DNA from: a plasmid
NCBI RefSeq assembly: GCF_058153355.1
Contig: NZ_JBLWLY010000002.1
Direction: 5' to 3' (one strand)
DNA length: 64,000 nucleotides
The position numbers and the translations under genes were made by a program. Under the pieces are notes generated by a model. It was not told the DNA's origin. It did not search any database and saw only the letters and a program-made list of their open reading frames with translations. How positions within the stretch are numbered: the first letter of the stretch is position 1; each line of letters begins with the position of its first letter. Below are positions 1 through 31,860 of the stretch, one piece after another.

Positions 1-159
1 TAAGGACAATAGTTTATCCAAACTGCCAAGCCCCTTTATTATAAGTACTAAATAAGCGTTCTAAACCGCCCCGAGTAGGCGGCCTGACGGCTGCGGCTTG
101 TCATGGCCTGTGATTACCGTTATAAAAACAGACAATATCATTGTCTTTCAGGCGGTTAT

Positions 160-525
160 ATGGCCCGTTCAGCTAAACCACGCAAACGAAAACCTGCACC
201 TCAAAGAAGCAAACTCCTCCGCTATGTCGTGAAACTTCACGAAGATGATTTTTTTGACGAAGAAGAAGCTGAGGTTCTGCGCTTTGATAATTTTGACGAT
301 GCCGTTGAGTGTTGCGCAGACCTGAATATTCCGTTCTTTGTGGATGCCGGAAACAAAAAACTGGTCTTCTGGTTTGTACGTGTTGATGACGAAGGGTATC
401 CGGAAATTGCCCGCTGCACGGAGCGGGAATTTGCGACAATTCCTGCCGGTATCAGCGCCGACGGCATGTATTGCCCTGAATGCGGTACGGTTCACTGGCC
501 GGATGGCGTTATTCCGCCTTTCTGA
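160..525 (+). CDS. hypothetical protein with acidic central region and C-terminal CPECG motif
   Basis: ORF 103..525 in track; internal ATG at 160 lies just after palindrome gacaatatcattgtc; no family recognised. Confidence 0.45.
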   Translation: MARSAKPRKRKPAPQRSKLLRYVVKLHEDDFFDEEEAEVLRFDNFDDAVECCADLNIPFFVDAGNKKLVFWFVRVDDEGYPEIARCTEREFATIPAGISADGMYCPECGTVHWPDGVIPPF

Positions 526-847
526 TGCTTCCCCGTTTTGCCGATATTTTTCAGCAGGGAAACCGATGGCTTAACTGGCTGGAGAAGCAGCCGGTGCAGA
601 TGAGCCGCCTGGAACATTATGCCGGTCAGGATGAAATTGGCCTGCGTTACAACAGCCACCGGACAAAACGAGAAGAAAACCTTGTGATGAGTGGCGACGA
701 GTTTATGGAAAGGTTCTCCTGGCATGTGGCGGATAAGGGGTTCCGGATGGTGATACGGGGTCCTGAGTCCGGTGAAGCGGCGATTACTGGAAGATGTGGT
801 GTACGCCATAACGGAGACAGTGAGAAAAACGGCGAGGCAAATCACAA

Positions 848-1200
848 GGAGAGGGATGTATCAGCAGTGACTGAAGGTTGACCCGCTGAAGTGCGAGCTG
901 TGCGGAGGTCAGATGCGGTTTACGGGGCTGAAGAGGGGTTACCGTCTGGCAGAGCAGGTTATGATGCATGAGCCGCTGGCACGAATACGGTGGTGCGGCT
1001 GAGAGTCGCAGAGGGGAAGTTGCGTCCATGTTGAGGGGAACGGAGCAAAAAACCATCAGAGATACATTGAATCAATCAATGTAAGCAATATTAAGTGTCT
1101 ATACCGATTACTTGATGATCAGGTTGTGTTGAATAAATGCGCATTCTTCGGTGCTTTTTTAATCTTTTGGGGATTTAAATTCCTATCGATGGACATGAAT
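848..1200. repeat. about 350-bp IS-derived segment, second copy at 31512..31860
   Basis: near-identical sequence read at both loci (gagagggatgtatcagcagtgactgaagg...); different flanks at each copy. Confidence 0.7.
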
Positions 1201-1768
1201 GCAGGCTATATAAGAGCAGCGCGCATCCACTTACCCAATGCGGTTGAGAAAATAGCCTTCGATCGCTTTCATGTGGCGAAACAACCGGGTGAGGTGGTGG
1301 ATAAAACCCGCCAGAATGAACATCCGCATCTTCCTGTTGAAAGTCGTCGTCAGGCAAAGGGAACTCGCTTCCTGTGGCAGCACAGCGATAAATGGATGAC
1401 CGAATCCAGGCAGGAAAAGCTGATATGGCTGCGTGCGCAGATGAAGCTGACGAGCCTGTGCTGGGAAAGAACTGGCAAAGGATATCTGGAGCAGACCATG
1501 GAGCGAGGAAAGACGCAACGACTGGCAGAGATGGCTGTCGCTGGCGGCCAACAGTGACGTCCCCATGATGAAGAATGTGGCTAAAACGATAGGGAAAAGG
1601 TTGTACGGTATCCTGAACGCCATGCGCCATGGCGTATCAAACGGAAATGCGGAAGCACTGAACAGCAAGATCAGGCTGCTGAGAATAAAAGCCAAGGGAT
1701 ACCGCAACCGGGAGCGCTTTAAGCTGGGAGTGATGTTCCACTATGGGAAACTGAATATGGCGTTCTAA
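1126..1768 (+). pseudogene. ISL3-family transposase, fragmented by frameshifts
   Basis: ORFs 1126..1557 and 1565..1768 carry ISL3-like motifs (FDRFHV, C-terminal KGYRNRERF) but are split and lack an intact N-terminus. Confidence 0.55.
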
Positions 1769-30156: not shown

Positions 30157-31503
<1,347 letters not shown>

Positions 31504-31511
31504 AGAGGGAT

Positions 31512-31860
31512 GTATCAGCAGTGACTGAAGGTTGACCTGCTGAAGTGCGAGCTGTGCGGAGGTCAGATGCGGTTTACGGGGCTGAAGAGGGGTTACCGTC
31601 TGGCAGAGCAGGTTATGATGCATGAGCCGCTGGCACGAATGCGGTGGTGCGGCTGAGCGCCGCAGAGGGGAAGTTGCGTCCATGTTGAGGGGAACGGAGC
31701 AAAAAACCATCAGAGATATATTGAATCAATCAATGTAAGCAATATCAACTGTCTATACCAATTACGTGATGATCAGGTCGTGTTGAATAAACGCGCATTC
31801 TTCGGTGCTTTTCTAATCTTTTGGGGATTTAAGTTCCTGTCGATGAACTGCTGGCGCTGC
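31512..31860. repeat. second copy of the 350-bp IS-derived segment at 848..1200
   Basis: near-identical sequence; here flanked by an IS66 fragment and an IS1 fragment. Confidence 0.7.

Follow-up and report, generated by a model that had tools for sequence, protein, structure and literature searches.

Organization of the locus

The window analyzed here is a 64,000-nucleotide stretch of plasmid DNA (contig NZ_JBLWLY010000002.1 of RefSeq assembly GCF_058153355.1), and near its left edge it carries a damaged copy of the insertion sequence IS91. When compared by blastn with an intact 1827-bp IS91 cut from a Klebsiella plasmid (L020), this copy matches in two blocks, IS91 1-521 to window 74-594 (89%) and IS91 1211-1827 to window 579-1190 (83%), and about 690 bp of tnpA are therefore missing. 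Both ends are present and align to the intact element, on the left from position 74 and on the right up to ...CCTATCGAT at position 1190. The features of the locus, with the basis for each, are as follows.

70-73, + strand: tetranucleotide CCCG at the terIS cleavage position, where CTCG is canonical (aligned copies)
74-1190, + strand: IS91-like remnant with both ends and an internal tnpA deletion of ~690 bp (blastn against intact IS91)
79-94, + strand: terIS subterminal hairpin GCGGCC-tgac-GGCTGC (alignment; palindrome in PMC13181058)
98-126, + strand: promoter Porf121, with a putative -35 hexamer TTGTCA (98-103), a 17-bp spacer and the -10 box TATAAA (121-126) (sequence; -10 box according to PMC13181058)
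131-145, no strand assigned: interrupted inverted repeat GACAAT-atc-ATTGTC in the orf121 leader (arms of 7 bp when taken as 130-146)
160-525, + strand: orf121 coding sequence, 121 aa, with a basic tail (residues 1-22), an acidic body and conserved C51, C52, C86, C105, C108 and H112; "IS91 ORF2" in pCP301
523-527, + strand: TGATG, the overlap of the orf121 stop and tnpA start codons (sequence; PMC13181058)
525-881, + strand: tnpA remnant ORF, 118 aa, with the deletion junction at about 579-594 and then a frameshift
877-1002, + strand: out-of-frame C-terminal fragment of tnpA, VDPLKCELCGGQMRFTGL...WCG* (translation against the intact copy in L002)
1003-1190, + strand: oriIS end region, ending ...AATTCCTATCGAT and followed by GGAC at 1191-1194 (complement GTCC) (alignment)

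At the left end, CCCG is followed by AGTAGG and then by the terIS hairpin; among the aligned copies, CTCG, CCCG or ACCG stands directly 5' of AGTAGGC, and CTCG has been reported as the predominant terIS cleavage site (PMC13181058). Intact IS91 copies have an identical right end, followed by GAAC or CAAG. The damage is thus internal, and it falls on the transposase. In the intact TnpA (395 aa), Pfam recognizes Zn_Tnp_IS91 at residues 17-104 and Y2_Tnp at residues 142-321, whereas the 118-aa remnant matches only positions 113-170 of the 183-position Y2_Tnp profile, and no Zn_Tnp_IS91 domain was found in it by Pfam. In the window copy the zinc domain and the larger part of the catalytic domain are gone, and with them the intact HUH/Y2 transposase of about 395 aa that marks an autonomous IS91, whereas terIS and oriIS, the promoter, the TGATG overlap and an intact orf121 remain. 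Given this tnpA defect, the remnant can do no more than provide Orf121 or be mobilized by a transposase acting in trans.

The surrounding DNA is a patchwork of insertion sequence fragments, as it is in pCP301 (IS629, IS3). The sequence that follows the IS91 right end (window 1191-1560) resembles a fragment of another transposase gene (ORF 1126-1557, ...DRFHVAKQ...), which suggests that IS91 inserted into or beside an older IS remnant. A second IS91 fragment at 31501-31844 consists of the oriIS end only and is 79% identical to IS91 1484-1827. Over its first 1.1 kb, the window shares 98.7% identity with Shigella sonnei, S. boydii and related pINV-type plasmids, near virA and icsA.

Identity and reading frame of the gene

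The + strand open reading frame at 103-525 encodes 140 aa when read from ATG103 and 121 aa when read from ATG160, and its stop codon occupies 523-525. Because ATG103 falls within the -35 hexamer, position 103 is not the start, and the 140-aa form is an artefact of choosing the longest frame. The NCBI annotation of the S. sonnei copy likewise uses the 366-nt, 121-aa form. The product length given in the initial annotation is thus confirmed, as are the two sequence marks it had noted, an acidic stretch (HEDDFFDEEEAE, residues 27-38) and a C-terminal CPECG motif (residues 105-109).

At the same time, the gene need no longer be called unassigned, as it was in that annotation. Protein searches return 121-aa proteins that are 93% identical over 100% of their length, several of them named "IS91, orf2" in their sources, and the annotation of S. 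flexneri pCP301 calls this 423-nt ORF "IS91 ORF2" (CP0176) and the next fragment "IS91 orf". In many plasmids the ORF directly downstream adjoins as an "IS91 family transposase", and the 470 bp around the ORF are present in 1,476 plasmid records. Against IS91 isoforms, the Orf121 of the window shows 88-93% protein identity, its allele differing from the others at about 7-11 of 121 residues. When orf121 is compared with five full-length IS91 isoforms, dN/dS is 0.07-0.09 at a dS of 0.43-0.56; a ratio of about 0.07 at a dS of about 0.5 identifies orf121 as a real coding gene, and one that is under clear purifying selection.

The gene is in fact already known as a described component of IS91, and its role was published in 2026. 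Literature searches for CP0176, "IS91 ORF2" and WP_000124084 returned only unrelated accession-prefix matches. The study of Fauconnier et al. (2026, Commun Biol, PMC13181058), which cites earlier work by Mendiola and de la Cruz, is devoted to orf121. It describes a 121-aa product with C105-x2-C108, encoded by a gene whose stop codon overlaps the tnpA start (TGATG), and it reports that orf121 and tnpA are co-transcribed, mainly from Porf121 in the terIS end, with tnpA translation coupled to orf121 through the overlap. The Orf121 of canonical IS91 strongly inhibits TnpA-mediated transposition in a stoichiometry-dependent manner, and it makes terIS cleavage more accurate, reducing one-ended transposition (PMC13181058). 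All of these landmarks are found in the window: TATAAA at 121-126, the ATG at 160, C105-x2-C108, and TGATG at 523-527. The gene thus combines full-length homology to IS91 Orf121, a position 3' of terIS with Porf121, and the TGATG overlap with tnpA, and its annotation as "hypothetical protein" or "unassigned" should be corrected to IS91 orf121 in a tnpA-deleted IS91 remnant.

The Orf121 protein and its homologues

Orf121 resists classification beyond its own family. Scans of the 121-aa product against Pfam and NCBIfam gave nothing above threshold, and a profile search of the PDB gave only sub-threshold matches to zinc ribbons (bL32m, TFIIB; E >= 0.15). When 1.84 billion representative proteins were searched exhaustively with a profile, 77 hits were obtained, nearly all of them fragments of one narrow enterobacterial family, and no wider superfamily emerged. 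No recognizable sequence-specific DNA-binding domain or fold was detected in these searches. What the alignment does reveal is a conserved Cys/His cluster (C51, C52, C86, C105, C108 and H112). The charge distribution is bipolar, with +9 on residues 1-22 and -16 on residues 23-121 (pI 4.06). Within the pINV lineage, Orf121 has L20 and D101 where at least 90% of the family has P and G (P20L, G101D); once tnpA was lost, these positions may have drifted, though the overall dN/dS is low.

Homologues of orf121 with 63-72% identity lie 5' of Zn_Tnp_IS91/Y2_Tnp genes in Salmonella, Kosakonia and metagenome contigs (L003-L005, L011-L014), where the terIS hairpin and the promoter hexamers are conserved. 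The gene is therefore not confined to the isoforms of at least 95% identity that were surveyed in PMC13181058. A far more divergent allele, P0180 (115 aa; L022 89-436), sits in an IS91 isoform at L022 1-1815 that also occurs in L023 and L024. Shared sequence is limited to the basic MARSxKPRKxK tail and to the CPxCGTxH end, and the allele keeps the bipolar charge split; the TGATG overlap is lost in this isoform, and the arrangement looks like a cassette-type replacement of the regulator gene. Finally, an orphan homologue, P0051 (115 aa, 69% identical, with the N-terminus MIRSSFPPQKR), was found in E. coli assembly sequence between an IS66 element and the wza-wzb-wzc capsule export genes (L006 2501-2848 and L007 2501-2848), with neither terIS nor Porf121 upstream.

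The promoter and the leader repeat

Mutation of the TATAAA -10 box of Porf121 lowers its activity 18-fold (PMC13181058); the near-consensus -35 hexamer TTGTCA is our own reading of the sequence. In the alignment of 15 elements the -35 hexamer is invariant, while the -10 box is TATAAA in 13 and TATAAC in the other two (L011 and L012), so that its first five bases, TATAA, never vary. A generic promoter scan does not list Porf121. That scan demands a T at the sixth position of the -10 box; the promoter assignment rests on the published mutagenesis (PMC13181058).

The site to which the initial annotation had drawn attention, as a perfect palindrome just upstream of the start codon, lies between this promoter and the gene. 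Its placement was accurate, as the repeat ends 14 nt before ATG160, but the site is no perfect palindrome: the reverse complement of GACAATATCATTGTC (131-145) is GACAATGATATTGTC, and the site is instead an interrupted inverted repeat with 6-bp arms and a 3-nt spacer. It begins 5 nt past the -10 box. The usual spacing from a -10 box puts the predicted transcription start at about 132-135, within the left arm, and the repeat would span the expected start at roughly -2 to +13 of Porf121.

A repeat of this kind is not in itself unusual. The window contains 362 inverted repeats with spacers of 0-10 nt and 31 of the same 6/3/6 kind, against 16 +/- 3.3 in dinucleotide shuffles, and when a 33-nt leader of like composition is shuffled, a repeat with arms of at least 6 bp arises in 6.6% of trials. 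The leader repeat is not beyond chance by itself; only its position is notable.

Conservation of the leader repeat

We compared the left ends of ten copies of IS91 sensu stricto and of five distant elements from Salmonella, Kosakonia and metagenomes, in which Orf121 is 63-70% identical and Zn_Tnp_IS91 and Y2_Tnp genes lie downstream. Within IS91 sensu stricto, the right arm ATTGTC is fixed, and together with the TTTC that follows (140-149) it is invariant in all copies examined, whereas the left arm varies. It is GACAAT in the window, L016, L018 and L024, GGCAAT in L017, GGAAAT in L008, GGTAAT in L009 and L010, and GATAAT with the spacer GTC in L002 and L019-L021, which are the copies that NCBI labels "IS91-like element IS91". 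Among exact matches in plasmid records, the perfect form accounts for about 479 records, GGCAAT for 155 and GATAATgtc for at least 461; the two imperfect versions thus occupy at least 616 records, and the repeat is imperfect in over half of the copies counted. A pattern scan added no variants, returning one chance match in metagenome contigs (L025, which is not IS91) and none in genome contigs.

Beyond IS91 sensu stricto the repeat disappears. The five distant elements differ in sequence from the -10 box to the ATG and have no consistent repeat there. The terIS hairpin offers a useful measure here, since each of the 15 distinct sequences preserves all six of its pairs, with changes only to G-U/G-T pairs. 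In the same helix test the terIS hairpin is 100% paired and the leader repeat 77.7%, and across the 15 elements the leader repeat shows no covariation above shuffles. Conservation in related plasmids, the check proposed for the palindrome in the initial annotation, thus does not support an operator: the left arm of the site is variable, it is imperfect in more than half of the copies, and it is absent at 63-70% identity.

Two further cases concern the repeat and the gene together. In the isoform that carries the divergent allele (L022-L024, from public read assemblies), the left end and tnpA are 90-98% identical to IS91 and the same perfect repeat is present, while the body of orf121 has a nucleotide identity of only about 45%. 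The repeat is thus linked to the promoter module rather than to the protein body. In the pINV of S. dysenteriae ATCC 12037 (L015, about 1600-1970), a frameshift in the T-run of GATGATTTTTTTGAC disrupts orf121 after codon 32, and the promoter and repeat are unchanged. A close relative with the ORF disrupted and the palindrome kept was the very finding that had been named in the initial annotation as refuting its reading, and this plasmid is one such relative. Indels in homopolymer runs of orf121 have been reported (PMC13181058), and in a decaying IS remnant such a frameshift beside an intact repeat is weak evidence either way.

Interpretation of the leader repeat

Overall, we hold it very probable that the gene is IS91 orf121, carried by a non-autonomous remnant on a Shigella pINV-type plasmid, and that the repeat in its leader is not a dedicated operator. 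Most likely, the repeat at 131-145 is a fortuitous and weakly constrained part of the orf121 leader, between the -10 box and the ribosome-binding site. Orf121 would then not be a sequence-specific repressor; it may act mainly through protein contacts, its very acidic body binding TnpA, while the basic tail would make non-specific contacts with nucleic acid. Contact between this body and the transposase more likely accounts for the stoichiometry-dependent inhibition described in PMC13181058 than does a classical repressor.

A different view, and an improbable one in our judgement, is that the repeat serves as a double-stranded operator at the transcription start, bound by Orf121 or by a host repressor that shuts down Porf121, giving autoregulation of the orf121-tnpA operon. 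The region around a transcription start is a frequent place for repressors to bind, and the repeat, directly 3' of the -10 box and spanning the expected +1, occupies such a place. The invariant right arm with its TTTC (140-149) in the IS91 sensu stricto copies examined also tells against a fortuitous repeat, and the strongly basic tail and conserved Cys/His cluster of Orf121 would be consistent with a binding protein. There is, in addition, a precedent in the sister elements ISCR1, ISCR2 and ISCR8, whose terIS transposase promoter has a -10 box overlapped by a LexA operator (PMC13393415), and the output of Porf121 is far lower in native constructs, whose downstream sequence makes Orf121, than in promoter-only fusions (PMC13181058).

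Against this stand the comparisons presented above. The operator of a symmetric dimer should show symmetric conservation and travel with its gene. The half-sites here are not conserved symmetrically wherever the gene is kept, the repeat is imperfect in canonical-type IS91, and it is absent from the elements whose Orf121 is 63-70% identical, even though these keep the terIS hairpin and both promoter hexamers; it is therefore unlike the operator of a symmetric dimer. It is also unchanged beside the divergent orf121 allele, the body of which has a DNA identity of only about 45%, its chance expectation is about 7%, and the proposed binding protein has no detected DNA-binding fold and a body with a net charge of -16. 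A host repressor fares no better among the candidates searched: with up to two mismatches allowed, neither window 60-175 nor the initial 100 bp of IS91 contains a LexA box (CTGT-N8-ACAG), and no match to the Fur or IHF consensus was obtained at the thresholds used. Of the suggested autoregulation or repressor control, then, the operator-like placement of the site stands, past the -10 box and across the expected start, and the comparative tests and the lack of a detected DNA-binding fold argue against the remainder. Position is what recommends an operator, the available comparisons go the other way, and as far as the sequences can tell the reading appears unsupported.

Somewhat less probable again is a role for the repeat in single-stranded form, either as a second terIS hairpin in the rolling-circle intermediate that would aid Orf121 or TnpA, or as a 5' hairpin in the orf121 mRNA that would affect its stability or translation. 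When the single-stranded DNA from the cleavage site to the ATG is folded, the centroid structure is predicted to contain both the terIS hairpin and the leader hairpin, on both strands and in both the window and canonical IS91 (z about -2). The repeat lies inside the functional terIS fragment, which comprises 89 bp from the cleavage site (PMC13181058) and so takes in nearly all of the stretch up to the orf121 ATG, and of the four variant left arms, three (A>G, C>T) can still form G-U pairs on the sense strand. Nonetheless, the hairpin is not conserved in distant relatives and shows no covariation above shuffles. On the bottom strand, which is the strand reported as functional, the hairpin of canonical IS91 contains an A-C mismatch, and only a single terIS palindrome has been described (PMC13181058).

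The RNA form of this idea does no better. The RNA is no more stable than shuffled sequence: for the 45 nt from position 131, z ranges from -0.8 to +1.9 overall, with -0.8 in the window copy and +0.5 to +1.7 in the other copies of IS91 sensu stricto, and the hairpin is missing from the centroid structure in canonical-type IS91. A transcript that starts at 132-135, as expected from the -10 spacing, would begin within the left arm and lack part of the stem. An RNA hairpin was considered as the leading explanation and rejected, given the z-scores, which are not significant, and the expected start. Rfam gave no hits on window 1-1300 at E <= 1.

The least likely arrangement that we consider joins repression to cleavage: positions 128-148 would form an additional functional part of the IS91 left end, a hairpin or binding site within the 89-bp terIS fragment and confined to IS91 sensu stricto, by which Orf121 would repress its promoter and also aid the accurate stop at terIS. 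Orf121 improved cleavage accuracy on the 89-bp fragment (PMC13181058), and the question whether it works through a site in this left end bears both on the biology of IS91 and on the one-ended co-mobilization of adjacent resistance and virulence genes. The sequence comparisons, however, do not appear to single out the leader repeat as that site. What the present analysis adds to the published account is thus a negative comparative outcome for the operator idea. Regardless of where Orf121 acts, remnants without tnpA that keep an intact promoter and orf121 on Shigella virulence plasmids could possibly serve as trans-acting dampers of incoming IS91.

Comparison with known systems

The closest known counterpart of the locus is canonical IS91, in which orf121 likewise follows terIS and has the TATAAA box, the TGATG overlap and the C105-x2-C108 pair. 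The window copy differs in that its tnpA is internally deleted and frameshifted and in that it has CCCG in place of CTCG at terIS; its leader repeat is perfect, whereas the canonical-type copies examined have an imperfect one. Among IS91-related elements, ISCR1, ISCR2 and ISCR8 likewise have a palindromic site at the transposase promoter within terIS (PMC13393415). In those elements, however, the site is a LexA box, CTGT-N8-ACAG, that overlaps the -10 box itself, a motif absent from window 60-175 and from the IS91 left end.

A broader parallel is provided by InsA of IS1 and OrfA of the IS3 family, which are also the products of small upstream ORFs that lower the transposition of their own element and whose expression is coupled to that of the transposase gene (PMC13181058). 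The resemblance does not extend to the means. Both InsA and OrfA bind to terminal inverted repeats in their respective elements (PMC13181058), whereas Orf121 is without a detected DNA-binding domain, and IS91, unlike IS1 and the IS3 family, has no terminal inverted repeats but two distinct ends, terIS and oriIS. The coupling differs as well: orf121 is joined to tnpA by a stop-start overlap, and not by programmed frameshifting as in IS1 and the IS3 family.
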